Source: Planctomycetota bacterium
GTDB taxonomy: Bacteria > Planctomycetota > PUPC01 > DSUN01
Length of the DNA stretch: 64,000 bases
NCBI GenBank assembly: GCA_035527715.1
Contig: DATKZY010000028.1
Span: 17,416-81,415 of the forward strand
Direction of reading: 5' to 3'
Numbering within the stretch: the first letter of the stretch is position 1; each line of letters opens with the position of its first letter. This document shows positions 28,664 to 51,734 of this stretch, piece after piece. The translations under genes and the position numbers were made by a program. The notes under the pieces are model-generated. The model was given only the letters and a program-made list of their open reading frames with translations, was not told where the DNA came from and searched no databases.

Positions 28664-28750
28664 GGGTGGGACAGGTGGGACCGGTGGGACGTGTGGGACC
28701 AATCGGACTACGAAGGGCGCGTCTGAGGCGTCCCACGGGTCCCACCGCCC
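28664..28750. repeat. 9-bp-period GGGAC/GTCCC palindromic array
   Basis: gtgggacag gtgggaccg gtgggacgt gtgggacca atcggacta ...loop... gtcccacgg gtcccaccg. Confidence 0.8.
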
Positions 28751-28770: not shown

Positions 28771-28799
28771 TTGACACGCCGCGCCCGGGGGGCTAAGAT
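28771..28799 (+). promoter_or_regulatory. Sigma70-like promoter candidate
   Basis: TTGACA-N17-TAAGAT, 55 nt upstream of ATG 28855. Confidence 0.45.
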
Positions 28800-30066: not shown

Positions 30067-30098
30067 GGTCGGCGCCTGCGGTTGGTGTGGTGCGCAGA

Positions 30099-30172
30099 CG
30101 CGTGACGCGTGACCCGTGACAGGAATCGGAACGCGCTCTCTTGCCCTATCACGCGTCACGAGTCACGCGTCC
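30099..30172. repeat. Inverted pair of heptanucleotide arrays (CGTGACN)
   Basis: cgcgtgacgcgtgacccgtgac ...27 nt... atcacgcgtcacgagtcacgcgtcc. The arms can pair as a long hairpin. Confidence 0.75.
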
Positions 30173-33465: not shown

Positions 33466-34150
33466 CACCACGGAGACACGGAGAGCACGGAGAAGACAAG
33501 ATCTCATGCAGAGCCAGCAGAGGCGGCAGGGCTCGCAGTGAAGACTCTCGACCCCGGATCGCACGGATCGGCGCGGATGGCGAAGCCGGGAAGGGGGCGC
33601 AGAAGGGGCAGCGACCGCGGATTACGCGGATGCCGCGGATAGGCAGAAGCGGAGAAGGCATACAGTAGGCAGTCCGCGCTCGTCGTCGTCGTCCTCGTCG
33701 TCGTCGTCGAAACCGCCGCGACCCGACCACGGATCGCACAGATCAGCACGGAAGGCGAAGCCGGGAAGCGGGCACAGAATGGGCAGCGACCGCGGATGAC
33801 GCGGATAGGCAGAAGGGGAGAAGGCATACAGTGGACAGTCCGTGCTCGTCGTCGTCGTCGAGACCGCTGCGATCCAACCCCGGATCGCACGGATCGGCGC
33901 GGAAGGCGAAGCCGGGAAGCGGGCACGAAAAGAAAGGCGACCGCGGATTACGCGGATGACGCGGATAGGCAGAAGGGGAGAAGGCATACAGTGGACAGTC
34001 CGTGCTCGTCGTCGTCGTCGTCCTCGTCGTCGTCGTCGAAACCGCCGCGACCCGACCCCGGATCGCACGGATCAGCACGGACGGCGAAGCCGGGAAGCGG
34101 GGACAGGAGGAAAGGCGACCGCGGATTACGCGGATGACGCGGATGGGAAA
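33466..34150. repeat. Tandem macro-repeat, about 3.5 units of 151-178 bp, built from nested 9-mer arrays plus (CGT)n
   Basis: The unit anchor ggatcgcac(g/a)gatc recurs at 33556, 33731, 33882 and 34060. Each unit contains ggatcgcac-ggatcggcg, cgcggatta-cgcggatga-cgcggatag and ggcatacagtggacagtccgtgctcgtcgtcgtcg... Unit length varies with the CGT tract. Confidence 0.85.
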
Positions 34151-34158
34151 CGCAAGAA

Positions 34159-34224
34159 GGTGTTCGGTGATCGGTGTTCGGGGTCAGGAGCTTGCGGCTT
34201 GTAGCTTGTGGCTTGCGGCTTCTC
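34159..34224. repeat. Heptanucleotide arrays (GTGTTCG-type, then GCTTGNG-type)
   Basis: ggtgttcggtgatcggtgttcgggg, followed by gcttgcg gcttgta gcttgtg gcttgcg gcttctc. Confidence 0.8.
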
Positions 34225-34368
34225 GCTCCCGGCTCGCCGCTCCCTCGTTCGCAGCGGCAGGTCATGCACACCTTCACGCGGAATCGTCTTCCCCCACAAA
34301 CCGCCCGACCGAGACAAAGGTAGAATGACGACCTGACACCGGCAGCCTATCGCCCTACCACTAGATGA

Positions 34369-36996: not shown

Positions 36997-37024
36997 GAGG
37001 CGCGAGGAGAAAGCCGGGTGTTCG

Positions 37025-37123
37025 GTGTTCGGTGTCGGGGGGGCGAAGAGAGGTGTTCGGTGTTCGGTTGTCGGTTGTCGGGGTGAAGAGGCGGAAGAGG
37101 GCATGGGTGGGACGAGTGGGACT
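37025..37123. repeat. Heptanucleotide arrays (GTGTTCG-type, two blocks) followed by a short GGGAC 9-mer array
   Basis: gggtgttcggtgttcggtgtcgggggg; ggtgttcggtgttcggttgtcggttgtcgggg; atgggtggg acgagtggg actgcgggc. Confidence 0.8.
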
Positions 37124-37426: not shown

Positions 37427-37458
37427 GGTGTCAGGTGTCAGGTGTTGGGGGTCAGGGG
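37427..37458. repeat. Heptanucleotide array (GGTGTCA-type) overlapping the 3' end of helicase 1
   Basis: ggtgtca ggtgtca ggtgttg ggggtca gggg. On the minus strand it encodes the last 8 codons (PKPLTPNT) and the stop codon of the helicase. Confidence 0.7.
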
Positions 37459-39807
37459 TTTGGGGCGCGGGACGTAGGGGTCGAGGGCGAGAAGGTCGTG
37501 GAGGATGAGGAGGGCCGCCTCCTTGTCGGGGATGCGGCCGCGGACCGACGAATCGAGGTCGCCCAGGGCGACCGAGGGGACGGCGGCGCCGACGCAACTC
37601 GGGCAGCCGTCGCGACATGCACACTGGCTGACGACGGTGTGGACGGACTTGAGCAGGTCGCCGATGGCCTCGGCGCAGCGTTCGGCGTAGCCCATGCCGC
37701 CGGGGTAGCGGTCGTAGAGGAAGATGGCGTCGCGGCCGAGATTCGTCGCATCTACTGTGGTGCCAATGTCTTGCACGTCGCACATGACGAACATGGGGGC
37801 GACCTCGACCAGGGCGTTGGCGATGCCGATGAGGCCCTCGGCGAAGACGCGCTTCTGCTGCGCGACGACTTCGCGGGCGTGGTCGGACGGCACGAGCCAG
37901 AGGGCAACGGTCTCGAGCTCCTGGGGCGGAAGCTCGAGCTTCTCGAATCCTAAACTATCGCGGGTATTGAACTTAACCTTCTTGAACATCGGGATATGGG
38001 TGGTCACCGTCACGTCGCCGAAGCCGATGGTGCCGCCGGCCCAGGGCTCCTCGCGGTCCTTTTCGTCAATGCGAATCTGCGAGGACTGGATGGACTGGGT
38101 GTAGTAGTCGAGGTCGCGGCGCTCGACGAAGGCGATCTTCTTCTCGAGGTCGAGCTTGTTCACGATGTAAGTGTCGCCGGAATGGAGGTATACGGCGTGG
38201 TCGTGGAGCTGGGCGAGGGCGGAAATCTCGTCCATCGTGCCGATCACCTGGTCGCCCTGCGTGGTGTCCTGGATGGTGTAGACGGGTCCGCAGAGGGTGC
38301 GGAGGTTGACTTGGGCGGCTGGGTAGTCGGAGGTGGCCCAGAACCACTTGTCATCTATACGCTTAGCGACTCCGCCATCGGCGAGGAGCTCGAGGATCGG
38401 CTCGGCGTATTCGCCGAAGCTGGGGGCCTCGGCATCGGGCAGGGGCAATTCGTGGAGGGCGCACTTGAGGTGGCCGACGGCGATGTGGGGGTTGTCGGGG
38501 TCAACGATGGCGCGCTCGGGGGATCGCCCGAAGATGAAGCCCGCGTTGTACATAAGGTATTGGTCAATGGGGGAGTTCTGGGCGATGAGGATGACGAGCG
38601 CGTCGTCGGCGCCGCGGCCGGCTCGGCCCGCCCGCTGCCAGAGGCTGGCGATGGTGCCGGGGTAGCCTACGAGGATGCAGGCGTCGAGCGAGCCGATGTC
38701 AATGCCCAGTTCGAGGGCGTTGGTGGAGGCGATGCCGAGGATTTCGCCCGAGGCCAGGCGGCGCTCGATGTCGCGGCGCTCCTCGGGCAGGTAGCCGCCG
38801 CGATAGCTCTGCACGCGCTGGGCGAGGCGGGGCGAGATGGGCTCGAGGAGGGTGCGAGCGTGCTTGAGTATAAGTTCCGTGCTGAGGCGGGTTTGCGTGA
38901 AAACGATGGTCTGGATTTCGTTGCGGACCAGATTGGTCATCAGCTCGACGGCGGTCCAGAGGGCGCTGCGGCGTTCGCCGCCCACGGCGGGGGCCTCGGT
39001 GGCCGGCAGGTCGCGGCTGAGGAGGGGCGGGTTCCAGAGGAGGAACTTCTTCGGGCCGCGGGGCGAGCCGTCGTTGGTCACCAGCTCGGCCGGGCCGCCG
39101 ATGATCCGCTCGGCGTGTTCCCTGGGATTGGCGATGGTGGCGGAGGAGCAGATGAAGAGCGGATTGCTCCCGAAGTGCCTGCAAATTCGGCGCATGCGGC
39201 GGACAACATTGGCGACGTGCGAGCCGAAGACGCCGCGGTAGGCGTGGACTTCGTCGAGGACGACGAAGCGGAGATTGGTGAAGAAGCGTGCCCAGCGGGC
39301 GTGGTTGGGCAGGATGCCCTGGTGAAGCATGTCGGGGTTCGTGAGGATGACGGCGCCGCGGTCGCGGAGCTTTCGGCGCTGGGGCGCGGGCGTGTCGCCG
39401 TCGTAGGGGCCGCAGGCGAACTGGAGACCCTCCACGCCGGCGGCAAGTTCCGAGAGGCCACGGAACTGATCCTGGGCGAGGGCCTTTGTCGGGTAGATCG
39501 CGATGGCCGTGGCCGTCGTGTCCGCGAGGAGCCTTTCGAGGATCGGCACGTTGTAGCAGAGGGTCTTGCCGCTGGCCGTGCTCGTGACGACGACCACGTT
39601 GCGGCCGCCGCGCACGTAGCGAATGGCCTCGGCCTGATGGGTGTAGAGGCGCTGGATGCCGCGGGCGTCGAGGGCGGCTTTCACGCGCGGCTCGAGGTCG
39701 AGGTCGGCATAGGTCGCCGGCCGCTCGGGCAGCTCTTCGACGTGATGGACCTGCTCGCGTAGCGAGCGGTCGCGGGCGAGACGGCGAAGAAAGGAGTCGA
39801 GGTCCAT
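37438..39807 (-). CDS. DEAD/DEAH-box SF2 helicase with C-terminal 4-Cys DUF1998 domain (MrfA/YprA, SftH-like), paralog 1
   Basis: Motif I TSTASGKT, DEAH-type LDEVH and SAT (CSSATIANP). The C-terminal QCACRDGCPSCV zinc cluster is present. 789 aa. Confidence 0.8.
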   Translation of the reverse strand: MDLDSFLRRLARDRSLREQVHHVEELPERPATYADLDLEPRVKAALDARGIQRLYTHQAEAIRYVRGGRNVVVVTSTASGKTLCYNVPILERLLADTTATAIAIYPTKALAQDQFRGLSELAAGVEGLQFACGPYDGDTPAPQRRKLRDRGAVILTNPDMLHQGILPNHARWARFFTNLRFVVLDEVHAYRGVFGSHVANVVRRMRRICRHFGSNPLFICSSATIANPREHAERIIGGPAELVTNDGSPRGPKKFLLWNPPLLSRDLPATEAPAVGGERRSALWTAVELMTNLVRNEIQTIVFTQTRLSTELILKHARTLLEPISPRLAQRVQSYRGGYLPEERRDIERRLASGEILGIASTNALELGIDIGSLDACILVGYPGTIASLWQRAGRAGRGADDALVILIAQNSPIDQYLMYNAGFIFGRSPERAIVDPDNPHIAVGHLKCALHELPLPDAEAPSFGEYAEPILELLADGGVAKRIDDKWFWATSDYPAAQVNLRTLCGPVYTIQDTTQGDQVIGTMDEISALAQLHDHAVYLHSGDTYIVNKLDLEKKIAFVERRDLDYYTQSIQSSQIRIDEKDREEPWAGGTIGFGDVTVTTHIPMFKKVKFNTRDSLGFEKLELPPQELETVALWLVPSDHAREVVAQQKRVFAEGLIGIANALVEVAPMFVMCDVQDIGTTVDATNLGRDAIFLYDRYPGGMGYAERCAEAIGDLLKSVHTVVSQCACRDGCPSCVGAAVPSVALGDLDSSVRGRIPDKEAALLILHDLLALDPYVPRPKPLTPNT

Positions 39808-39869: not shown

Positions 39870-40733
39870 TCACGGCCGCGTTCCGGCCCCGCCCGACCTG
39901 ACGTGCTCGATGGTCTTGTCGGCCCACTCGTCGCAGAAGGGGTTCTCGCCCTTGTAGCCGAGAAGCAGACACGGGTCTTCGAGCATCCTGTCCCAGAACA
40001 GGCGCATGCACTCACGGCACTTCATGAGGCCGACGTTGGCATCCCCGCTCTTCGTCCACCTTATGAAGCCGGACTCATCGAGGACCTTGGCGGCGCGGGA
40101 GTTATTCCTGTAGAAGTTGCGGTAGCCCTTGGGGCTTTTCGTGACCTCGACCTCGATGGGCTTCCCATCGGGGCCTTTGACCAGCGCGCGGGACACGGCC
40201 ATGTAGGGGAGGGCCATCCAGTCCTCGACGACGTGGAGGGTGGTGTTGGTTCGGTTGGTGGTGCCGAAGAAGCAGATCCAGGCGTCCCACTCGAAGTTCT
40301 TGCCGTAGGGGCTCACGCGGTCGAAGGTGGAGCCCTTCTCGTGGCCGGCCACGTATTCTTCGGCGCGGGCGCCGATCGCGGCGATCGAGTGGGTGGGGTG
40401 CCGCGAGCGTTTGCGCTCGGGCCGCGCGAGGAAGACGTTGGTGACGCTGCCCACGCGCGAAGGCGTGGTGTCGGGGTCGAAGGCGTACGCGACGGGCCCG
40501 TCGGGCTTGGATGGCGCGAACGTAGCGGTGAGGGCCGGGACGGCCGCGAGGCCGTTCGGCCCGACGGTCTCGAGGAAGGCGTCTATGACCATGTCGGCGC
40601 CGCAGTTGGGGAGCTTGACGAGTTCGCGGGCGGGCCTCAGCATGCGGAGGTCGCTGTGGAAGAGGACGGCGTCGCCCTCCCTGAGGCCGAGCTCGGCCAG
40701 CCCGGCCTTGATGTCTTCCTTCGTGATGGCCAT
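39870..40733 (-). CDS. AAC(3) family N-acetyltransferase (aminoglycoside 3-N-acetyltransferase fold)
   Basis: VLFHSDLRML...GADMVIDAFLETVGPNGLAAVPALT, HPTHSIAAIGARAEEY and SPYGKNFEWDAWICFFGTTNRTNTTLHVVE match family hallmarks. The substrate is unknown. Confidence 0.7.
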   Translation of the reverse strand: MAITKEDIKAGLAELGLREGDAVLFHSDLRMLRPARELVKLPNCGADMVIDAFLETVGPNGLAAVPALTATFAPSKPDGPVAYAFDPDTTPSRVGSVTNVFLARPERKRSRHPTHSIAAIGARAEEYVAGHEKGSTFDRVSPYGKNFEWDAWICFFGTTNRTNTTLHVVEDWMALPYMAVSRALVKGPDGKPIEVEVTKSPKGYRNFYRNNSRAAKVLDESGFIRWTKSGDANVGLMKCRECMRLFWDRMLEDPCLLLGYKGENPFCDEWADKTIEHVRSGGAGTRP

Positions 40734-40942: not shown

Positions 40943-43786
40943 CTACCGCCATTCCTTGGGCGCACGCTTGCGCTTGCGGGCGAGTGCGGCGAGGGGGTCG
41001 CCGGCTTTGATGGGGGCGGGAGTGGGACCCATGGGACCAAGGGGAACTATGGGACCGGCAGGAGCTTGCGGCGGCGCGGGACGGAAGGCGGGGGGAACAT
41101 TGGGCTCGGGGGTGGCGGGGCCGGGCTTGCGCTCGCCGCGGGCGATGGCCTTGTCGTGGCGAAGCTTGCGGAAGACGCGACGGGCGACGTCGGCGTTGGT
41201 GAGTTTCGAGCGCTGCTCGGGCTGCGGAAAGGCCGTGTGGATGTCGTGCTCGATGGGATGGACGGGATGGGGCAGGAGCGGCTCCCTGGCGTGCTCGAGG
41301 CGGCGACGCAGGCTGCGCTCCAGGGCGAGGCGGGCCTCAGGGGCCGTCTGGCCGAGGCTCACCGTGTCGGGCTCGTCGAGGCGCGAGCCGTCGTCGAGGA
41401 GGCGTTCGAGCATGAAGAGGGTGGCGCGCTTCGAGGGGATCGAGCCTTCGCCGCGCTCGACGTTCCAGGTGACGTCCTGGCGGAGGGGTTTGCCGACGCA
41501 GCAGGGGCAGCCGTCGTCGCAGTCGCACTTGCGAATGTGGTCGAGGACGGCGGGCATCAGGCGGCTGGCCAATTCGTAGGCGCGCTCGGTGAAGCCGAGG
41601 CCGAGGGGGTAGCGTTCGTAGACGAATGTGGTGTTCCACGGGGCGTTGACGGCGCCGACGGTGTGCGAGAAGTCGAGGGTCTCGCAACGGACGAAGAGAG
41701 GGAGGACCTGTCGCGTGGCGTAGCCGATGCCGCGGCAACCGGCGTGGGGATCAATGTCCAGCGCGAGCGCACGGCGGCACAGCTCCTCGGGCGGGACGAG
41801 CCAGAAGGCGTGGGTCTCGAAGACGAAGGTCGGCAAGTCGAGCGGATGGCGCGAGAGGGCGTCGAGGGTGTAGAAGTGGATCCGCTCGTAGGCCCAGGTG
41901 TGGAAATGCGTGGTGACCTCGCCGAAGCAGAGGGTGCCGATGCCGAAGGGCCGCTCGCGCAGGCGGGCGTCAATGTGGTGGACGTCCGTGCCGCCGAGGG
42001 GCTGGGTGTAGTAATCCACGTCCACCTTGCGTACGCGGGCGAAGGAGTGCTCGAGGTCGAGCTGCTCGACGAACCACGTGTCGCCCTGATGGAGGTAGAT
42101 GGCCTCGGGGTGGACGTAGATGGGGGCGTCGAGCTTGGGCATTTCGCCGATGATCTGCTCGGTCGCGGCATCCACCACGACCACGTTCCGGTCGTCCATC
42201 GCGCGGAGCGAGACCTCGTGCTGCGGCGTCTCGGGCGCGCTGTGGTGCCAGGAGCGATGCTCGGTGTCGTGGTAGACCTTCTGCTGGCCTTCGAGGACTT
42301 CGAGGGCGATGGGCGCGGCGGGACCGAAACGCGGCACCTCGTCGTCGGGCAGCGGCAGCTCGTGGGTCGCGCAGCGCAGGTGGCTGACGACGATGTGCGG
42401 GTTGTCGGGCTCCAGCACGCCCTCCTCGATGGGCCGGCCGAACAGGTAGTCGGGGTGCCGCATGACGTATTGGTTGATGGCCGTGTCGAGTCCCACGAGG
42501 ATCACGAGGGCCGCCTTGTCGCGTCGGCCCGCGCGGCCGGCCTGCTGGAAGAAGGAGGCGAGGGTGCCGGGGTAGCCGACGATGAGGCTGGCCTCGAGGG
42601 AGCCGACGTCAATGCCAAGTTCGAGGGCGCGGGTGGAGCTGACGCCGAGCAATTCGCCGCTGAACAGCTTGTGCTCGATCTCGCGACGTTCGGTGGGCAG
42701 GTAGCCGGCGCGGTAGGGCGTCACCTTGTCGGCGAGCGGCGAGGCGAGGCGTTCGAGCGATTCGCGGACGTAGCGGTAGATCAGCTCCGCCGTGACCTTG
42801 GCCTTCGAGAAGGCGATGGTGGGCGTGCCCGCTAGGACGAGCGCGGTCATCAGCTCCTGCGCCTCGACGTTGGCCGAGCGCCGCGAGCGCCACTGCGTCG
42901 AGCGGATGCGAGGGGGATTCCAAAGGACGTAGGTGCGGGGGCCGGAGGGGGAGCCGTCGGTGGAGATGAGGGCGATGGGACGAATGGGACTTATGGGACC
43001 TATGGGACCCGTGGCACCTACCGGTCCCATCGGTCTGATGGGTCCCATACGTCCCATCAGCTTGGCGGCCACTTCGAGGGGATTGGCCAGCGTGGCCGAG
43101 CAGGCCAGAAATTGCGGCTTCGAGCCATAGTGGGCGCACACGCGGTCGAGCCGGCGGAAGAGATTCGCCACGTTGGCCCCGAAGAGGCCCGTGTACGTGT
43201 GCAGCTCATCCACGACGATATGGGTGAGGCGGGCGAACACACTCGCCCAGCGGGGATGCTGCGGCAGGATGCCGGCGTGGAGCATATCGGGGTTGGTGAT
43301 GATCACGGCCGCCTTGTCGCGAAGCTGGCGGCGGTGACTTGCCGGCGTATCGCCGTCAATCACCCCGACCGTAACCTCCCGCGGGTTCGCAACCCGCGGG
43401 AGGTTTGCGGCTTGAAGGGCGCGCTGGAACACGCGGAGCTGGTCTTGCGACAGCGCCTTCGTGGGATAGAGGGCGAGGATGCGGGCGGTGGGGTCGCGCT
43501 CCAGTTGCTCAATGATGGGGAGCAGATAGCAGAGCGTCTTGCCGCTGGCCGTCGAGGTCGTTACCAGGAAGTCGCGGCCCGCGCGCGCGAGGTCGAGTGC
43601 CTGGGCCTGGTGGAGATAGAGCTGTTCGATGCCCATCCCCGCGAGCATTCGCGCGCAGGCCGGCGACAGCGGCTCCCGCGGCGCCGCATACCGCGCTGCC
43701 CGCCCCGCGACGCGGTGCACGTGGACGATCTGGCCGCGATAGTCGGCCGAGGCACGCAGATGCTCGAGGAAGGAATCGAAGTCCAC
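40943..43786 (-). CDS. DEAD/DEAH-box SF2 helicase with C-terminal 4-Cys DUF1998 domain (MrfA/SftH-like), paralog 2, carrying repeat-derived insertions
   Basis: GTG start. Motifs are TSTASGKT, VDELH, CSATLANP and KCDCDDGCPCCV. It is 947 aa. The extra length comes from a Gly-Pro insertion encoded by the 42974-43058 array and from a Pro-rich C-terminal tail containing the 41019-41057 array. Confidence 0.8.
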   Translation of the reverse strand: MDFDSFLEHLRASADYRGQIVHVHRVAGRAARYAAPREPLSPACARMLAGMGIEQLYLHQAQALDLARAGRDFLVTTSTASGKTLCYLLPIIEQLERDPTARILALYPTKALSQDQLRVFQRALQAANLPRVANPREVTVGVIDGDTPASHRRQLRDKAAVIITNPDMLHAGILPQHPRWASVFARLTHIVVDELHTYTGLFGANVANLFRRLDRVCAHYGSKPQFLACSATLANPLEVAAKLMGRMGPIRPMGPVGATGPIGPISPIRPIALISTDGSPSGPRTYVLWNPPRIRSTQWRSRRSANVEAQELMTALVLAGTPTIAFSKAKVTAELIYRYVRESLERLASPLADKVTPYRAGYLPTERREIEHKLFSGELLGVSSTRALELGIDVGSLEASLIVGYPGTLASFFQQAGRAGRRDKAALVILVGLDTAINQYVMRHPDYLFGRPIEEGVLEPDNPHIVVSHLRCATHELPLPDDEVPRFGPAAPIALEVLEGQQKVYHDTEHRSWHHSAPETPQHEVSLRAMDDRNVVVVDAATEQIIGEMPKLDAPIYVHPEAIYLHQGDTWFVEQLDLEHSFARVRKVDVDYYTQPLGGTDVHHIDARLRERPFGIGTLCFGEVTTHFHTWAYERIHFYTLDALSRHPLDLPTFVFETHAFWLVPPEELCRRALALDIDPHAGCRGIGYATRQVLPLFVRCETLDFSHTVGAVNAPWNTTFVYERYPLGLGFTERAYELASRLMPAVLDHIRKCDCDDGCPCCVGKPLRQDVTWNVERGEGSIPSKRATLFMLERLLDDGSRLDEPDTVSLGQTAPEARLALERSLRRRLEHAREPLLPHPVHPIEHDIHTAFPQPEQRSKLTNADVARRVFRKLRHDKAIARGERKPGPATPEPNVPPAFRPAPPQAPAGPIVPLGPMGPTPAPIKAGDPLAALARKRKRAPKEWR
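41019..41057. repeat. GGGAC 9-mer array inside the helicase 2 C-terminal tail
   Basis: gagtgggac ccatgggac caaggggaa ctatgggac. It encodes PIVPLGPMGPTP on the minus strand. Confidence 0.75.
42974..43058. repeat. Palindromic GGGAC/GTCCC 9-mer array inserted in frame in helicase 2
   Basis: atgggacga atgggactt atgggacct atgggaccc gtggcacct | accggtccc atcggtctg atgggtccc atacgtccc. It encodes RMGPIRPMGPVGATGPIGPISPIRPI, and paralog 1 has only GPAE at the same position. Confidence 0.85.
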
Positions 43787-44843: not shown

Positions 44844-47800
44844 TCACCTTTGCCCACTGGGCGCGAAGGCGAACGAGGTTTGGACCGGGAACGGGCAGGT
44901 GCAGCCGGAGCTGGCCTCGGGGACGAGGACGAGGCCGCCGGCGGGGATGATGTTGATCCAGCAGCCGGGGCGGCTGACGGTGGAGAGCTTGCTGGCCTGG
45001 CGGGTGCGCAGGTCGAACATGGCGGGGTTGCCCGCGCGGTAGAAGAGCTGGCCCGCCGAGGCCGACATGGTGCCGCAGCCGTGGCCGCCGCGGTTGAACT
45101 TCCAGTCGGGCACGGGCTCGCCCGTTCTCAGGTCATAGGCGCACGGCTCGGCGTAGACGATGCCGCCGACGATGACGGGGTGTCGCGTCTGCTCGCCGTG
45201 GTCGCCGCCGGGCTTGTGGCGGTTGTCCTGCTCCCGATGCCAGCGGGGCTCGCCCGTCTTCGCGTCGAAGGCGAACAACTCATACCAGACCGTGTTGTTC
45301 TTGTTCTTCGAGCCGGTGGCAACGACAGTGCCCTGCGCGATGCTGAGGAAGATGACGTGCTGGAACGAGCGGAGGTCCACGGGCTTCTTCCAGAGGGTCT
45401 GGCCCGACCTGGCGTCGAGGGCGACGAGTGAGGCGCCGGAGCCGAGGAGGAAGTCGAGCTTCATCCGCCCGTCGGCGTCCTTCGTAGCGTCGGGGTTGGC
45501 GCTCTCGACGAAGTACACGCGTCCATCTGCGATGGCGATGGTGGGGTCGAGGATGACGCCGGCGTCGTAGGTCCATCGCTTCTCGCCAGTCTTGCGGTCC
45601 AGGCAGAAGAGGGTGTCGCTGGTGCTGACATCCTTGAAGTCGCCGTACTGGATTTCGATGACGGTGCGGCCCATGGCGCGAAGGGAGGCGCCCTTCTTGC
45701 GGCCCGAGCCGAAGAGAGCGTCACCGACCGTGGCCACGTAGCCCCAGGAATGTTGGCCGCCTGCCTCGCGCCGCGGCGCGGCGAAGCGCCGCACGATGGA
45801 GCCCGTGGCGACGTCGAGCGCCACGCATTCGTCGGGGCCGACGGCATAGAGCAGATCATCGGCGAGGGCCAGGTAGCCGCTGTCCTTGGGCGCCCCCAGG
45901 CGGCTGGACTCGGGCAGGTCGGCTTCCCAGAGGGCCGTGCCATTATGGGCGTCCACGGCAATGATCTTGTTGTAGGCGGGGACGAAGAGGCGGCCGTCCT
46001 TGGCGAGGGGCGGGACGGCGCGGTGGTGACGGTCGGCCATCGCGTTGGGGCCGGGCGGGCCGAACCATTGCACGCGCATCTCGCCGCCGACCAGGCGGTC
46101 GCCGCTGCACGCCGTGTTGGCGGGGTCGGCGTAGAGATGCGTCCACTCTCCCGCGCCCTCGAGCGGGCCGCGGCGGGTGAGCTTCGCGGGGCCGTCGAGG
46201 CGGAGCGCGCCGCCGTACGGCTTCGCGAGGCGTGATGCTCCGTCGGGCGCTGCGCTCCTCGGGTTCGTCACGTGGTCGAAGACGACCAGGTCGGCAAAGC
46301 CGCTCGGGAGCGACGACAGCGGGCCGCTCTGCACGGTGGCCCGGACGCCGAGAAGCCCCGCTGCGTCGAGCGCTCTCCGGGCGGCGGCGCGCTTCCCTGC
46401 GTCGTCCTCGATGCCGATGATCGAGAGCTCCGTCAGCTTCGCAAGCTCGTAGACGAGGCGGCCGTCGCCACAACCGAGGACGACGCCGAAGCCCTTTCTC
46501 ACGCCCGACTTCTCCACGATATCCCTGGCGGCCTGTTCGTATGGCGGCGCTGGTGGCGGCCCATCGCTCGGCGACTCCTGGCCGCTGCGCGCCGTGCCCG
46601 TCGCGGCGAAGCAGTGGATGGCGCCTTTGTCGGTGCTGACGAGGAGGCGGCCGTGGGCGGCGGCGAGGCCGTAGGCGGTGCCCTCGACCTTGCCCGACCA
46701 GAGCGCCTCGCCGTCGGCCGCGCGGAACGCGGCCACGTCGCCCTCGCCCCCCACGAAGAGCGTGTCGCCCGCCAGGATGAGCGACGCGGAGTGCGTGCAG
46801 GGCCGCTTCCAGATGAGGCACGCTTGCATGCCCTTCGCGAGTTCGGCGAGGGCGGCCTTGTTGGTCTCGTGCTCGGCTTTCAGCTTCCTGCCTTTGTCGC
46901 TATCGGCCTTCCTGCCGAGCTTCTTGAGCGCGTCCCCGATGGCCTTCTGCCGGGCGGCGAGCTTGCGGCTCTGGTCGAGGAGGCCGAAGTAGCGGACGCG
47001 GTCGAGTGCCTGGAGCTCGCGGCCCGTGAGGAAGTAGAGGGCCTTGTCGGTGGCGAGGGCGCGGCGGGCGTTGAAGGACACGAGCTGGCTCCCCGTCGCG
47101 GCGTCGAACGCTTCGATTTGGCCGATCTTCCCCGGGCCGTTGAGGAACAGGTTGCCGGCGAGCGCCGCGTTGGTGCCGCCGGTGCCCTTGATGCTGCCTG
47201 CCGGCTCGCCGTCGGCGAGGCGGAACACGGCAGGCGCCGTCCTGCCCGTCGGCACGTAGAGATGCGTGGCCGAGGCCAGGAGATAGCCCTGGGGCGAGAG
47301 GTTGACGGGCCGCGGCTTCCATCGCGGCGAGCCGTCGCGCGCGTCCACTGCCACGAGCGAGACGCCTTCCCAGGGGAAGAGCCCCGCGCCGGCGTATGCG
47401 GTCCCGTCGGCCACAAGGATGCCCGTGCGGACGGGTGAGGCGGAGATGAGCCGGCCGTTGCCGATGAGCTGGCGGGCGTCGGGCGCGGCCCGATGCCTCC
47501 ACACCTCGGCGCCGCTGCTCGCCGCAAGGCAGTAGACCCAGCCGTCGTCCGAGCCGACGTAGACGTTGGCGTCAGCGACTGTCGGCGCAAGGCGCACCGG
47601 GCCGCCGGTGAAGAAGGTCCAACGCACCCTGCCCGTCGCGGCGTCGAGGCACACGACCTTATCTTCGGCCGACGAGCCGAAGTAGATGGCGTCCCCGGCC
47701 GCAACGACGTGGAAGGCGCGATCATAGGTGACCCGCGCGGCCAGGTCGGTGAGCTTGTGCCAGTAGTCCACCTTGGCCGGCGCGGGCCAGGCCGGGCGGG

Positions 47801-47984
47801 GGGCTTGGCGCGGGGTGTGGGCCCACGCCTCCTGCAGCGGCAGGGAGAGCGCTTCTGAGGCGATGCCGCTCCGCTGGTTGTCGTGGAGATGCGTCGGCCA
47901 GTCTTCCGCTCTCGCCGCTGCAAGGGCAAGCAGGACCGCGAGGGAGACGCCGAGGCCGAGGAAGGAACGTTTCTTCTCACGCAT
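44844..47984 (-). CDS. Secreted PQQ-like propeller - MTase-like domain - propeller protein (class B paralog)
   Basis: MREKKRSFLGLGVSLAVLLALAAARAEDWP signal. The central module is GFGVVLGCGDGRLVYELAKLTELSIIGIEDD...FADLVVFD. PQQ-like blades lie on both sides and the C-terminus carries the SSGCTCPFP motif. Confidence 0.75.
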   Translation of the reverse strand: MREKKRSFLGLGVSLAVLLALAAARAEDWPTHLHDNQRSGIASEALSLPLQEAWAHTPRQAPRPAWPAPAKVDYWHKLTDLAARVTYDRAFHVVAAGDAIYFGSSAEDKVVCLDAATGRVRWTFFTGGPVRLAPTVADANVYVGSDDGWVYCLAASSGAEVWRHRAAPDARQLIGNGRLISASPVRTGILVADGTAYAGAGLFPWEGVSLVAVDARDGSPRWKPRPVNLSPQGYLLASATHLYVPTGRTAPAVFRLADGEPAGSIKGTGGTNAALAGNLFLNGPGKIGQIEAFDAATGSQLVSFNARRALATDKALYFLTGRELQALDRVRYFGLLDQSRKLAARQKAIGDALKKLGRKADSDKGRKLKAEHETNKAALAELAKGMQACLIWKRPCTHSASLILAGDTLFVGGEGDVAAFRAADGEALWSGKVEGTAYGLAAAHGRLLVSTDKGAIHCFAATGTARSGQESPSDGPPPAPPYEQAARDIVEKSGVRKGFGVVLGCGDGRLVYELAKLTELSIIGIEDDAGKRAAARRALDAAGLLGVRATVQSGPLSSLPSGFADLVVFDHVTNPRSAAPDGASRLAKPYGGALRLDGPAKLTRRGPLEGAGEWTHLYADPANTACSGDRLVGGEMRVQWFGPPGPNAMADRHHRAVPPLAKDGRLFVPAYNKIIAVDAHNGTALWEADLPESSRLGAPKDSGYLALADDLLYAVGPDECVALDVATGSIVRRFAAPRREAGGQHSWGYVATVGDALFGSGRKKGASLRAMGRTVIEIQYGDFKDVSTSDTLFCLDRKTGEKRWTYDAGVILDPTIAIADGRVYFVESANPDATKDADGRMKLDFLLGSGASLVALDARSGQTLWKKPVDLRSFQHVIFLSIAQGTVVATGSKNKNNTVWYELFAFDAKTGEPRWHREQDNRHKPGGDHGEQTRHPVIVGGIVYAEPCAYDLRTGEPVPDWKFNRGGHGCGTMSASAGQLFYRAGNPAMFDLRTRQASKLSTVSRPGCWINIIPAGGLVLVPEASSGCTCPFPVQTSFAFAPSGQR

Positions 47985-48120
47985 CACGTTTCACTCATCA
48001 CGGGTGAGGAGGATCTTCGCCATCGGTTCGGCCACGGCCCGGCGGCGTGGGCGGCTGGCGAGACTTTCTGGCTTCGGCGGTTCTCCAGTCGTGGTTTGCG
48101 CATCATTCACTCAACACGTC

Positions 48121-51100
48121 TCACTTGCCCCAAGTGGGAGCGAAGGCAAACGAGGTCTGGATCGGGAATGGGCAGGTGCAGCCGGAGCTGGCCTCGGGGA
48201 TGAGGACGAGGCCGCCGGCAGGGATGATGTTGATCCAGCACCCAGGGCGGCTGACGGTGGAGAGCTTGCTGGCCTTGCGGCTGCGCAGGTCGAACATCAC
48301 GGGATTGCCCGCGCGGTAGAAGAGCTGGCCCGCGGAGGCGGACAGGGTGCCGCAGCCGTGGCCGCCGCGGGTGAAGTCCCAGCCCGCAATCGGCTCGCCG
48401 GTCGCCAGGTCGTAGGCCTGGGGCTCGGCGTAGACGACTCCGCCGGCGATCACGGGGTGAAGCGTCTGCTCGCCGTGGAAGCCGCCCACATTGCGCTGGT
48501 TGTTCTGCTCGCGGCGCCAGCGCGGCTCGCCCGTCTTCGCGTCGAAGGCGACTAGCTCATACCAGACGGTGCGGTCCTTGTTCCTGGACCCCGTGACGAC
48601 GAGGGTGTCCTGCGCGACGCTGAGGAAGATGATGTGCTGGAGAGAACTGAAGTCCACCGTTTTCTTCCAGAGGGTTTGGCCCGACGTGGCGTCGAGGGCG
48701 ACGAGGGCGGCGCCGCTGCCCAGCAGGGCGTCGAGCTTCAGGCGGCCATCGGCGTCCTGCGCCGCGGCGGGGTTGGCGCTCTCGACGAAGTGGACGCGTC
48801 CGCCGGCGATGGCGATGGTGGGGTCGAGGACGACGCCGGCCCGGTAGGTCCACCGCGTCTCGCCGGTCTTGCGGTCGAGGCAGAAGAGGGAGTCGCTTGT
48901 GGAGATTTCCTTGAAGTCGCCGTACTGGAATTGGACGCGGGCGCGGCCCATGACGCGGATCGAGGCGTCGCGCTTGCGGGCAGAGCCGAGGAGCAGGTCG
49001 CCCGTGGTGGCCACGTAGCCCCAGGAGGGGGGCGCGTCGCCCTCGGGCGAAGGGGGCTTGAAGCGGCGCACGAGGGTGCCGGAGGCCACGTCGAGGGCGA
49101 CGCAGTCGTCGGCTCCGGCCGCGTACAGCACGTCGGGGGCGAGGGCGAGGTGGCCGCTGTCGCGGAGGGCGCCGAGGCGGCTGGACTCGGGCAGATCGGC
49201 CTCCCAAAGGGTCGTGCCATTGCAGGCGTCCACGGCGATGACCTTGTTGTAGGCGGGGACGAAGAGGCGGCCGTCCCTGCACAGGGGCGGCATGGGCCGG
49301 TGATGGCGGTCGGCCATGGGGTTGGGGCCTGGCGGGCCAAACCACTGGATGCGCATCGCGCCGCCGACCAGGCGGTCGCCGCTGCACGCGGTGTTGGCGG
49401 GGTCGGCGTAGAGATGCGTCCACTCGCCGGCGCCTTCGAGCGGGCCGCGGCGGGTGAGCCTCGCGGGGCCGTCGAGGCAGAGCGCGCCGCCCCACGGCCT
49501 CACGAGGCCGGCCGCATCCGCGGGCGCCGTGACATCCGGGTTCGTGACGCGGTCGAAGACTACCAGGTTGGCGAAGCCGCGGGGCAGCGTTGAGAGCGGG
49601 CCGCGGCGGACGGTGACTCGGACGCCCGCCACCCCCGCCTTGTCGAGCGCGCTCCGTGCGGAGGCGAGCTTGCTTGCGTTCTCCTCGATGCCGAGGATCG
49701 TGAGGTCGGTGAGCCCGGCCAGCTCGCAGGCCAGGCGCCCGTCGCCACAGCCGAGGACGACGCAGAGGCCCTTCGTGACGCCCGACGCTTCGACGATTTC
49801 CTTTGCGGCCTGCGCGTAAAGCGGTGAGAGGCTGTCGGTCGCATAAGGGGTGACGGGAGGGGTGTTCGAGGACGACGAGGGCGAAGCCGCCGACGACGCG
49901 AAGCAGTGGATGGCCCCCTTGTCGGTGCTGACAAGGAGGCGGCCGTGGGCGGCGGCGAGGCCATAGGCCGTGCCCGCCACCTTGCCGGTCCAGAGCGGCT
50001 CGCCGTCCGCCGCCCGGAAGGCGGCGACTTCGCCGTGGCCTCCCGCGAAGAGCGTGTCGCCGGCGCAGATGAGGGTGGCGCGGTGCCGGCAGGGGCGCTT
50101 CCAGAGATAGCAGCCCAGCGTCTCCTTCGACGCGGCGGCGAGGGCGGCTCGATTGGCCTCTCGCTCGGCCTTGAGCTTCTTGCCCTCCACGCTGGTGTCG
50201 GGCTTGCCGAGCTCGCCGAGGCGCCGCTCGATCTCCCTCTGGCGGGTGGAGAGGTCTCGGCGCTGAGTCAGGAGGCCGAAGTAGCGGACGCGGTCGAGGG
50301 CCTGCAGTTCGCCGCCGGTGAGGAAGTAGAGCGCCTTGTCGGTGCCGATCGCGCAGTAGCCGGGGAACGTGGCCACAAGGCCCATCGTCTCGCCATCGTA
50401 GGCCGCGATCTTGCCGTCCGCGCCGGGCCCGTTGAGGAGCAGGCCGCCTGTGAAGGTGGCGTAGGCTCCGCCGCTGTCGGTGCGGACGCCCGCCTGCTGC
50501 CCATTGGTGCGGCGGAAGGCGGCGGGCGCCGCCCTGCCGGTCGGCACGTAGAGGCGGGAAGAAGAGGCGAGGAGGTAGCCCTGCGGCGACCGGCTCAGCG
50601 GCGCGGCCGGCCACTTCGGCGAGCGGTCCAGGGCGTCCACGGCCCAGAGTAGCACGCCCTCGGTCGGGAACAGCCCGGCGGCGAAGTAGGCCGTGCCGTC
50701 CGCCAGGAGCACGCCGGTGCGGACGGGGGCGGCGGAGATCACCCGGCCGTTGCCGATAAGCTGGCGGGCATCGGGCGCGGCCCGCATCCGCCACACCACG
50801 CCGCCGTTGCCCGCGTGCACGCAGTAGACCCAGCCATCGTCGGAGCCGACGTAGACCTTGCCGTCGCACACGGCGGGCGCGAGGCGGACGGGGCCGCCGG
50901 TGGCGAAGGACCACCGCACCTCGCCCGTCGCGGCATGGAGGCAGGTGACCGAGTCGTCGGCCGAGGAGCCGAAGTAGACGGCGTCGCCGGCCGCAGCGAC
51001 GTGGAAGGCGCGGTCGTAGGTCACCCGGGCGGCGAGGCCCTGGATGCCGTGCCAGTAGTCCGTGTCGGCGGGCGCGGGCCACGCGGGTCGCGGCGCGTGC

Positions 51101-51261
51101 CGCGGTTCGAAGGTCCAGGCCTCGGCGAGAGGGAGGGGGAGTTGCTCGCCCGTGACCCCGCTGCGCTGGCTGTCGTGCATGTACGTCGGCCAGTCCTCGC
51201 CCGCCGCGCCCCGCGCAAGCACGAGTGCCAGCAGCCAAGATGCCAGAACTTGGGTCGCCAT
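48121..51261 (-). CDS. Secreted PQQ-like propeller - MTase-like domain - propeller protein (class B paralog, tandem duplicate)
   Basis: ATG 51261 gives MATQVLASWLLALVLARGAAGEDWP. It is collinear with the 44844-47984 protein, with stretches of about 90% nucleotide identity by eye. The upstream 85 codons of the track ORF are not supported. Confidence 0.75.
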   Translation of the reverse strand: MATQVLASWLLALVLARGAAGEDWPTYMHDSQRSGVTGEQLPLPLAEAWTFEPRHAPRPAWPAPADTDYWHGIQGLAARVTYDRAFHVAAAGDAVYFGSSADDSVTCLHAATGEVRWSFATGGPVRLAPAVCDGKVYVGSDDGWVYCVHAGNGGVVWRMRAAPDARQLIGNGRVISAAPVRTGVLLADGTAYFAAGLFPTEGVLLWAVDALDRSPKWPAAPLSRSPQGYLLASSSRLYVPTGRAAPAAFRRTNGQQAGVRTDSGGAYATFTGGLLLNGPGADGKIAAYDGETMGLVATFPGYCAIGTDKALYFLTGGELQALDRVRYFGLLTQRRDLSTRQREIERRLGELGKPDTSVEGKKLKAEREANRAALAAASKETLGCYLWKRPCRHRATLICAGDTLFAGGHGEVAAFRAADGEPLWTGKVAGTAYGLAAAHGRLLVSTDKGAIHCFASSAASPSSSSNTPPVTPYATDSLSPLYAQAAKEIVEASGVTKGLCVVLGCGDGRLACELAGLTDLTILGIEENASKLASARSALDKAGVAGVRVTVRRGPLSTLPRGFANLVVFDRVTNPDVTAPADAAGLVRPWGGALCLDGPARLTRRGPLEGAGEWTHLYADPANTACSGDRLVGGAMRIQWFGPPGPNPMADRHHRPMPPLCRDGRLFVPAYNKVIAVDACNGTTLWEADLPESSRLGALRDSGHLALAPDVLYAAGADDCVALDVASGTLVRRFKPPSPEGDAPPSWGYVATTGDLLLGSARKRDASIRVMGRARVQFQYGDFKEISTSDSLFCLDRKTGETRWTYRAGVVLDPTIAIAGGRVHFVESANPAAAQDADGRLKLDALLGSGAALVALDATSGQTLWKKTVDFSSLQHIIFLSVAQDTLVVTGSRNKDRTVWYELVAFDAKTGEPRWRREQNNQRNVGGFHGEQTLHPVIAGGVVYAEPQAYDLATGEPIAGWDFTRGGHGCGTLSASAGQLFYRAGNPVMFDLRSRKASKLSTVSRPGCWINIIPAGGLVLIPEASSGCTCPFPIQTSFAFAPTWGK

Positions 51262-51307
51262 GCCGCTCACGGATGGGACTCGCCGCGGATCCGCCTCCAT
51301 GAACCTG

Positions 51308-51336
51308 ATTATACCCCCGCGCGGGCGCAGGAGCAA
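51308..51336 (-). promoter_or_regulatory. Sigma70-like promoter candidate for the 48121-51261 gene
   Basis: Minus strand reads TTGCTC-N17-TATAAT (perfect -10), about 45 nt upstream of the ATG. Confidence 0.5.
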
Positions 51337-51381
51337 CTGGAGCGACGGACCGAGCGGGCCTGGGCGGCGGCGCGCCGCGGC

Positions 51382-51410
51382 TTGACTCGATGCGGCGCCT
51401 GTGCTATAAG
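51382..51410 (+). promoter_or_regulatory. Sigma70-like promoter candidate for the 51510-54695 operon
   Basis: TTGACT-N17-TATAAG. Confidence 0.5.
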
Positions 51411-51509
51411 AATCCCAGTGGTGATGCAACCAGGGCGGGGAGGCGTGTCTGCTGAGGCGGTTGCTCACGGGTCGTTCCTCAGGGTGTCGTGGGCTCACGG
51501 GGGCCGCCG

Positions 51510-51734
51510 ATGGCAAGACGACGGATGCTGAGACTCGCTGGTATCGCGGCGCTGGTACTGGCGTTCCTGAGCGCGCCGCGCGATGCCTACGCCTATCTGG
51601 ACCCCGGGACGGGGAGCCTGATCCTGCAATTCGTGATTGCGGGCCTGGTCGGCTCCGCGTTCGCCATCAAGCTCTTCTGGCGCCGCATCGTGGGCCTCTT
51701 CCGCAAGCGTCGCTCGGAGCCCGACCGAGAGTAA
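51510..51734 (+). CDS. Small membrane protein (hypothetical)
   Basis: MARRRMLRLAGIAALVLAFLSAP plus a second hydrophobic helix LILQFVIAGLVGSAFAIKLFW. The stop is 4 nt before the next ATG. The start is ambiguous (51489, 51510 or 51525). Confidence 0.5.
   Translation: MARRRMLRLAGIAALVLAFLSAPRDAYAYLDPGTGSLILQFVIAGLVGSAFAIKLFWRRIVGLFRKRRSEPDRE

Follow-up and report, generated by a model that had tools for sequence, protein, structure and literature searches.

An in-frame inverted nonamer array in the inter-domain linker of a Planctomycetota MrfA/YprA-type helicase: probable passenger copy of a dispersed hairpin-forming repeat family

Helicase 2, one of two tandem helicase paralogs in a 64,000-nt stretch of a Planctomycetota bacterium genome (contig DATKZY010000028.1 of assembly GCA_035527715.1, positions 17,416 to 81,415, hereafter the window), is interrupted between its two RecA-like domains by an 85-nt array of 9-bp units arranged as two inverted arms. 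This array, which lies in frame in the RecA1-RecA2 linker of a MrfA/YprA-type DNA-repair helicase, likely represents one copy from a dispersed family of inverted nonamer arrays able to form hairpins, of the general form ([A/G]TGGGACNN)n - short centre - (NNGTCCCA[T/C])n, and in our view is carried there as a passenger. The array, its arms and the two helicase genes are located as follows.

42974-43058, minus (coding) strand: in-frame inverted nonamer array (Tandem Repeats Finder, inverted-arm search, folding, translation, ortholog gaps), encoding the loop peptide MGPIRPMGPVGATGPIGPISPIR.
42974-43012: left arm, 39 nt, GGGAC units on the plus strand.
43020-43058: right arm, 39 nt, GTCCC units on the plus strand.
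40943-43786, minus strand: helicase 2, a superfamily 2 (SF2) helicase of the MrfA/YprA type, 947 aa, 2844 nt (Pfam, 6ZNP match, Foldseek, motifs, dN/dS).
37438-39807, minus strand: helicase 1, tandem paralog of 789 aa with the same domain architecture as helicase 2.

On the plus strand, the array consists of about five copies of ATGGGACNN, a 7-nt centre and four inverted copies of NNGTCCCAT, with three exact ATGGGAC and four exact GTCCCAT cores. Tandem Repeats Finder reports 5.1 copies of period 9 and consensus ATGGGACCT at 42975-43020, and an inverted-repeat search pairs the arms across the 7-nt centre with 82% complementarity. The DNA fold of the array reaches -32.4 kcal/mol, against -18.4 kcal/mol for dinucleotide shuffles (z -5.4), and that of the mRNA strand -58.1 kcal/mol against -38.1 kcal/mol (z -5.35), the folding energy of the array being equalled by none of 200 shuffles. 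The palindromic GGGAC/GTCCC array of period 9 that the original prediction had picked out from the letters alone is thus real, on the evidence of the repeat finder, the 39-nt arms and a z of about -5.4.

Its reading through the gene was also correctly seen. The coding strand of the array encodes M244-I271 without a stop (...KLMGRMGPIRPMGPVGATGPIGPISPIRPIALISTDGSP...), 11 residues past motif III (CSATLANP), and four of the six reading frames are stop-free, in agreement with the earlier suggestion that the repeat is compatible with coding. Relative to orthologs with an empty site, the net insertion amounts to 23 codons (69 nt, M247-R269) and not 26, because the outermost array units overlie the native codons for L-G-R and P-x: at 43046-43057 and 42971-42979 of the window, ATG GGA CGT replaces CTT GGG CGN and CCC ATC replaces CCN NNN, respectively.

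The host gene is a MrfA/YprA (DUF1998) SF2 helicase by its Pfam domains (DEAD, Helicase_C, WHD_HRQ1 and MZB, the last being the DUF1998 MrfA zinc-binding domain), its conserved zinc cysteines (C754, C756, C760, C763) and its similarity to the closest solved structure, Bacillus subtilis MrfA/YprA (PDB 6ZNP, E 2e-151). The HMMER alignment to MrfA splits exactly at the array (query 246|269 vs MrfA 240|240), the insertion point being the K240|P241 junction of the B. subtilis protein. In an AlphaFold2 model built on 61 homologs (predicted template modelling score 0.81; Foldseek against 6ZNP, E 7e-72, TM 0.81-0.84), residues 250-264 have a predicted local distance difference test score (pLDDT) below 50, and a disordered coil spanning 245-270 joins helix 236-244, at the end of RecA1, to strand 271-274, at the start of RecA2. 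As modelled, the insert is an extension of the linker between RecA1 and RecA2 and a predicted disordered surface loop; its place between the two RecA-like domains is the one named in the original prediction. Motifs I (GSGKT), Ia (PTKAL), II (DELH), III (SAT) and VI (QxxGRAGR) are invariant alignment columns, and dN/dS lies between 0.14 and 0.29 for every ortholog pair, filled or empty alike; judged by these alignments, helicase 2 remains intact and under purifying selection.

The description of the loop as collagen-like does not carry over beyond its composition. Glycine is swapped for Arg or Ser in three of eight triplets (R251, S266, R269), the longest G-X-Y run is four consecutive triplets, and no match to Pfam Collagen (PF01391) is found in helicase 2 at E<=0.001.

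The segment is an insertion by three comparisons. Among 7805 homologs, of which the best 120 were listed and the linker was read in the first 60 of these, a segment at the linker site is confined to P0001-P0010, orthologs that are 78-84% identical and annotated as Planctomycetota, and the more distant homologs are all empty. Within the clade itself, the site is filled in P0001, P0002, P0003, P0004, P0006, P0009 and P0010 and empty in P0005, P0007 and P0008. Helicase 1 reads ...IIGGPAELVTNDGSP at the aligned place and has no insert there. A Gly-Pro segment shared by all orthologs, named with the original prediction as evidence against it, is not what is observed. The orthologous inserts are themselves arrays of related 9-bp units in the same reading frame, and differ as follows.

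Insert lengths: 12 aa in P0002 and P0004; 33 aa in P0003; 27 aa in P0006; 19 aa in P0009; 17 aa in P0010.
Unit types: GTGGGAC...GTCCCAC at loci L001 and L006; ATG.GTCCCATAGGTCC at L005; GTCCGAC at L007; GTCCGAT at L004.

The L001 insert is palindromic as well (37-nt arms, 70% complementary), and L004, L005 and L007 have one arm only or a degenerate array. With a period of 9 and inserts of 12-33 aa at one site, the locus also has the properties of a coding minisatellite. A private and recent invasion of this genome does not agree with these data, since six other orthologs carry different arrays at the site with a common 3' flank; the event is accordingly older, or recurrent, or was moved by recombination.

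The history of the site is visible in its flanks. A neighbour-joining tree groups P0001-P0010 at 98% support with the empty P0013 outside; within this group, a subclade with 100% support unites the three empty orthologs with the filled P0003 and P0006, and dS between orthologs is 0.36-0.59. Between the filled L001 and the empty L002, identity is 95% over the 60 nt upstream and 96.7% from 30 to 300 nt downstream, and the two differ by a 93-nt insert plus the next ~20 nt; the site therefore turns over quickly. A comparison of the two loci for the signature of a miniature inverted-repeat transposable element gave no clear duplication, the replacement of the ~20 nt 3' of the insert blurring the junctions. 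All filled alleles carry a derived 3' flank, ATC GCN CTC AT (I-A/S-L-I), and the empty alleles retain the outgroup-like P-x-E-L-[VI]. Neither a single clean gain nor a single clean loss fits both tree and flank states. On the simplest view, an old insertion took place once, in the clade ancestor, and recombination later replaced the segment in some lineages; a hot spot at which insertion recurred may also account for the pattern. That the empty site in L002 arose by gene conversion from helicase 1 is not supported, the paralog sharing just CCG GCC GA with that site before synonymous positions differ. In L002 (10730-10745) and L356, the empty site is a perfect 8-bp palindrome, GGGCGCCC (CTT GGG CGC CCN), centred on the insertion point, which could reflect a target preference or be the seed of hairpin growth in situ.

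The two arms appear to change together. When the hairpins of the window, L001 and L006 are aligned, 89% of cells are paired, vs 26-48% with slid partners, and four compensatory pairs are found, three of which are A:U in the window and G:C in L001 and L006, at the same position in successive units. The arm subtypes are correspondingly ATGGGAC/GTCCCAT in the window and GTGGGAC/GTCCCAC in the other two. Drawn from three sequences, this covariation is no more than suggestive; it fits templated homogenisation, either hairpin-directed or from other genomic copies (both AT-type and GT-type arrays are present in the window, at 2735-2805 and 28665-28747, respectively), and fits selection on the structure as well.

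Dispersal within the window also supports the proposed family. Triplets of GGGAC at 9-bp spacing, with up to two mismatches, occur 16 times vs 0.77 expected, and the GGGAC clusters number five in 64 kb, three intergenic and two in helicase 2. The claim that similar arrays occur in intergenic DNA elsewhere stands as to the common unit and the inverted architecture, and needs correcting in that one of these arrays (41023-41056) lies inside the tail of helicase 2 itself. The four further arrays are the following.

2735-2805: intergenic inverted array with the opposite arm order, (GTCCCAT-type)x4 then (ATGGGAC-type)x4.
28665-28747: intergenic inverted array of GTGGGAC/GTCCCAC units.
37100-37122: short remnant of a GTGGGAC array, downstream of helicase 1 in a spacer that also has heptamer arrays.
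41023-41056, minus strand: second in-frame array, one arm only, in the C-terminal tail of helicase 2 (Tandem Repeats Finder, alignment, pLDDT).

The array in the C-terminal tail reads GGT CCC ATA GTT CCC CTT GGT CCC ATG GGT CCC ACT, or AGPIVPLGPMGPT, and falls in a region (residues 884-929) with a pLDDT below 50 in the AlphaFold2 model. This site varies too, with arrays in P0005 and P0006 and none in P0002, P0003, P0007 and P0008. In P0010, the tail (L007 3058-3308) holds three in-frame copies of a different palindrome, CCCTCTCCC-N3-GGGAGAGGG, with a period of ~75 nt; this helicase gene has taken in several kinds of insert. A further 26-aa insertion, VEKDTRCLLCEAPAGPFRQKTAGVFF, is seen in P0010 at residues ~292-317, after the NPPR motif.

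The 85-bp spacer that separates a glucan phosphorylase-like gene from a squalene-hopene cyclase-like one is filled by the array at 2735-2805, which overlaps possible start codons of the cyclase-like gene. At 2734-2772, this array supplies in-frame ATGs upstream of the cyclase-like gene, with a possible N-terminal extension MGPMGSIGPIGH before MNPSD, so that the true start of this gene is ambiguous. The array at 28665-28747 lies upstream of a Gfo/Idh/MocA oxidoreductase gene and stops 24 bp short of the good sigma-70-like promoter of this gene (28771-28799, TTGACA-17-TAAGAT), in a place where regulator-binding sites are typically found.

If the helicase array is a copy of such a family, it would essentially be a passenger, tolerated because its unit equals three codons, most of its frames are stop-free, and linker and tail are permissive. 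It would change by unit slippage combined with templated copying, that is, hairpin-directed correction or conversion from genomic copies, and templated copying would keep the arms complementary and so explain their covariation between orthologs. Several observations weigh against this reading. Five arrays per 64 kb is a small number, and the 20-kb flanks of five related genomes are without arrays outside the helicase, so that the family is not highly abundant. No mobility machinery, distinct terminal inverted repeats or target-site duplication was found, the window not having been scanned gene by gene and REP-associated tyrosine transposases (RAYT) not having been searched for. Under simple gain or loss, the 3' flank shared by the filled alleles disagrees with the gene tree, and recombination is required. 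The covariation of the arms in three sequences could reflect selection on RNA or DNA structure, that is, a function and no passenger. The empty site is itself palindromic and the outer units overlie native codons, which growth in place fits as well as insertion does. The linker of helicase 1, comparable to that of helicase 2 (GGC GGN CCG, in the same genomes), is without an array in the window and in any of the five related genomes, which argues against frequent random insertion filtered by tolerance alone.

A wider scan placed the unit among other repeats. Searched exactly, with one genome per species, three [A/G]TGGGAC units recur in more than 118 stretches from many phyla. Inverted arrays in DNA that is apparently non-coding make up many of the hits in Planctomycetota, Verrucomicrobiota, Lentisphaerota, Acidobacteriota and others, and the actinobacterial and Firmicute hits look like coding Gly-X-Y repeats; 'spanning ORFs' (open reading frames) around scan hits mostly looked spurious in GC-rich DNA. 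Loci of Acidobacteriota and of the Planctomycetes-Verrucomicrobia-Chlamydiae (PVC) superphylum contain additional, independently located arrays that are often of the GGGAC/AGGAC type, and genome-specific families therefore exist. At 9-bp spacing in viral contigs, permuted heptamers gave >120 and 28 stretches, vs 80 for ATGGGAC; GGGAC as a special motif shared across phyla was rejected, because permuted heptamers are as common and ordinary coding Gly-X-Y repeats account for many hits. Inverted-array patterns in viral contigs returned zero matches for either motif and are hence uninformative. A permuted control heptamer, AGGTGCA, forms inverted 9-bp-period arrays in 19 metagenome contigs (L358-L376), from which it follows that the inverted nonamer architecture is generic. 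Six of these contigs (L358, L363, L364, L365, L368 and L369) have common flanks full of further GGTGCA/TGCACC sites, resembling iterons or operators.

It is conceivable, and we offer the idea tentatively while leaning against it, that inverted (heptamer+NN)n arrays make up an undescribed and widespread class of bacterial repeats, kept by hairpin-templated copying or by a heptamer-reading protein. The GGGAC/GTCCC family of PVC bacteria and Acidobacteriota would then be one member of this class, able to colonise permissive linkers in frame and to evolve in concert thereafter, with arms that co-vary from one ortholog to another.

Growth in place, the strongest of the competing accounts, is in our judgement unlikely. 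According to it, the array is a coding minisatellite whose hairpin nucleated at the native GGGCGCCC (L-G-R-P) and grew symmetrically through slippage and fold-back template switching, the likeness to the intergenic arrays resulting from a shared process or from later conversion. The 8-bp palindrome centred on the insertion point in L002 and L356, the coincidence of the outermost units with native L-G-R and P-x codons and the lack of any transposition signature found all suit this account, and the AGGTGCA arrays in 19 contigs indicate that the architecture can arise with different cores. However, all five arrays of the window share the [A/G]TGGGAC core, which would not be expected from arbitrary seeds, the native seed matches the array unit in its TGGG part alone, and the comparable linker of helicase 1 never grew an array.

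Still less probable is a functional nucleic-acid element with the peptide as a by-product, acting as an mRNA structure for translation or decay, as protein-binding sites in the DNA or as a cruciform. The hairpin is very stable (RNA -58 kcal/mol, z -5.35), its complementarity is kept in two orthologs at dS ~0.48 with compensatory A:U<->G:C differences, and of the intergenic copies, one is found a short way upstream of a promoter and another adjoins a start codon. Yet three close orthologs are without the array at equal constraint, L004, L005 and L007 retain one arm or a degenerate array, gene-adjacent arrays show no consistent frame or side, and the covariation is equally explained through replacement by another subfamily copy. 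In the array region of helicase 2, neither an intrinsic terminator nor a promoter signal was found, and an array acting as either inside the gene was rejected on that ground; a known structured RNA family was likewise rejected, an Rfam 15 scan of the whole window giving no family at gathering score and generic microRNA-precursor hairpin models alone matching, at scores far under threshold. Arrays as start-codon or N-terminal extension devices were rejected from 131 clusters in other genomes, in which all frames are used near gene starts, none being preferred.

An adaptive hinge, in which a Gly/Pro-rich, polyproline-II or collagen-like segment tunes helicase domain motion or partner binding, is very unlikely. 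The insert does lie exactly at the inter-domain linker, and both arms and all orthologs use the G-P-x frame, but its length (12-33 aa) and sequence differ among near relatives, sister lineages are without it, its glycine periodicity is broken with no Collagen domain match, it is disordered in the AlphaFold2 model, and the dN/dS of the gene is the same whether or not the insert is present. An artefact of assembly or sequencing, with palindromic tandem repeats being a classic source of misassembly, deserves next to no credence: the 2844-nt gene is identical in contigs of two other assemblies, ERZ27256827 and ERZ27256834, which differ from the window elsewhere, the 85-nt array is shorter than the k of 141 in those assemblies (from the k141 contig names) and than ordinary reads, and homologous arrays occupy the same site in independent metagenomes of other projects.

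Among known systems, the passenger array may best be compared with the Rickettsia palindromic elements (RPEs), which are described as inserting in frame in many genes at fold-compatible sites (Ogata et al. 2000, as summarised in PMC10969869); analogous protein-coding palindromic repeats are known from Wolbachia and Methanocaldococcus (cited in PMC2996958). By analogy, the helicase array resembles RPEs as an in-frame palindromic repeat in a permissive loop, an uncommon and already known type of event. Both are dispersed palindromes found in intergenic DNA and in frame inside conserved genes, and both add a peptide at a permissive site without inactivating the protein, their presence varying among relatives. 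The properties that define RPE-type insertions are found here, namely a long hairpin, an in-frame position in an intact gene, dispersed copies and a predicted loop site, the likeness being one of behaviour. RPEs, however, are unitary elements of ~100-150 bp (those first reported measuring ~150 bp, PMC10969869) in consensus-classed families from reduced alpha-proteobacterial genomes, whereas the helicase array consists of 85 bp of inverted 9-bp tandem units in free-living Planctomycetota of ~70% GC, varies in length by whole codon triplets and belongs to a set with far fewer copies per kb.

Other repeat classes are further removed. Repetitive extragenic palindromic (REP) sequences occur inside genes, many of them replication or repair genes, and REP families have been reported in the PVC superphylum (Di Nocera et al. 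2013; PMC3733652). They share with the arrays a short, GC-rich palindromic form and a mostly intergenic location with occasional copies inside ORFs, but are single stem-loops of 20-40 bp with a GTAG/CGTC tag and a link to the RAYT transposase (PMC3733652), while the helicase array is 85 bp long, is built of 9-bp units and has no consistent GTAG/CGTC tag at either end. Coding variable-number tandem repeats (VNTRs) have in common with it a 9-bp unit, frame-preserving length variation and a low-complexity Gly/Pro product; VNTRs are direct repeats, whereas the helicase array combines direct and inverted units in a long hairpin and shares its unit with non-coding arrays. Palindromic amphipathic repeat coding elements (PARCELs), HMM-defined amphipathic domains of 25 residues in surface and membrane proteins (PMC2996958), show a similar coding dyad symmetry, in which both arms or orientations give similar peptides, but have no sequence or structural likeness to a Gly/Pro nonamer array. 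Bacterial collagen-like (G-X-Y)n sequences resemble it in that GGN CCN NNN gives a 9-bp period with a reverse complement that is also Gly-Pro, and this coding Gly-X-Y type accounts for many of the 9-bp arrays seen in Actinobacteria, Firmicutes and viral contigs; the difference is that glycine is interrupted in the helicase array (at R251, S266 and R269), which has no more than four consecutive triplets and resides in a monomeric helicase. In the searchable literature, which is incomplete, no description was found of the unit sequence or of 9-bp inverted arrays in PVC bacteria or Acidobacteria.

Read as a passenger repeat, the array would show that selfish palindromes within protein-coding genes, best known from Rickettsia and Wolbachia with their reduced genomes, also occur in a large, GC-rich, free-living Planctomycetota lineage, here with a different architecture, a hairpin made of codon-sized tandem units. 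Such arrays can extend loops and tails stepwise, since their unit equals three codons and most of their frames are free of stops, and they provide an easy way to new low-complexity linkers. With filled, empty and differently filled states among relatives whose flanks hardly differ, the helicase locus is a natural system for the study of array origin and turnover. It also carries a warning for annotation: in a GC-rich genome, a 'collagen-like' Gly/Pro segment can be repeat DNA and not a functional domain.

The neighbourhood of the helicases differs between genomes. In the window, an aminoglycoside 3-N-acetyltransferase-family gene (39870-40733) sits between helicases 1 and 2, and a Phd/YefM antitoxin-family gene and small ORFs come before helicase 2. 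A gene of the same acetyltransferase family adjoins helicase 2 in L001, L005 and L357, and the two helicases are adjacent in L002 and L006. An RNase_H_2 (MrfB-like) gene lies directly upstream of helicase 2 in four related loci, and two genes intervene in L004.

Other repeats are numerous in the window. Short heptamer arrays, apparently in spacers, are seen at 13244-13275, 17211-17244, 30097-30171, 34159-34241, 37017-37081, 37427-37465 and 56736-58, with the units GCAGTCG, GGCAGTC, GACGCGT, GGTGTTC, GCTTGCG and GGTGTCA; they recall the cyanobacterial STRR heptamers, and heptamer arrays adjoin nonamer arrays in other genomes too (L096, L106, L108). A tandem repeat of ~178 bp at 33549-34144 (3.6 copies) has internal CGCGGATGA nonamers and TCG runs; the near-identical assembly ERZ27256827 (locus L126) departs from the window at few places, of which this is one, with indels and substitutions at 33729-33950. 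Two tandem PQQ-like beta-propeller paralogs (44844-47987 and 48121-51516) are ~79% identical in DNA, and most of the differences between the window and the near-identical assembly ERZ27256834 (locus L127) fall inside one of the two (49411-49987), which suggests recombination between the paralogs or strain variation. Finally, a 192-bp tandem repeat at 63355-63785 (2.2 copies) encodes repeated Cys-rich GCxGYPKCRY motifs and resembles the C-terminal zinc ribbons of topoisomerase I, a gene for which is annotated in the syntenic loci L001-L003.

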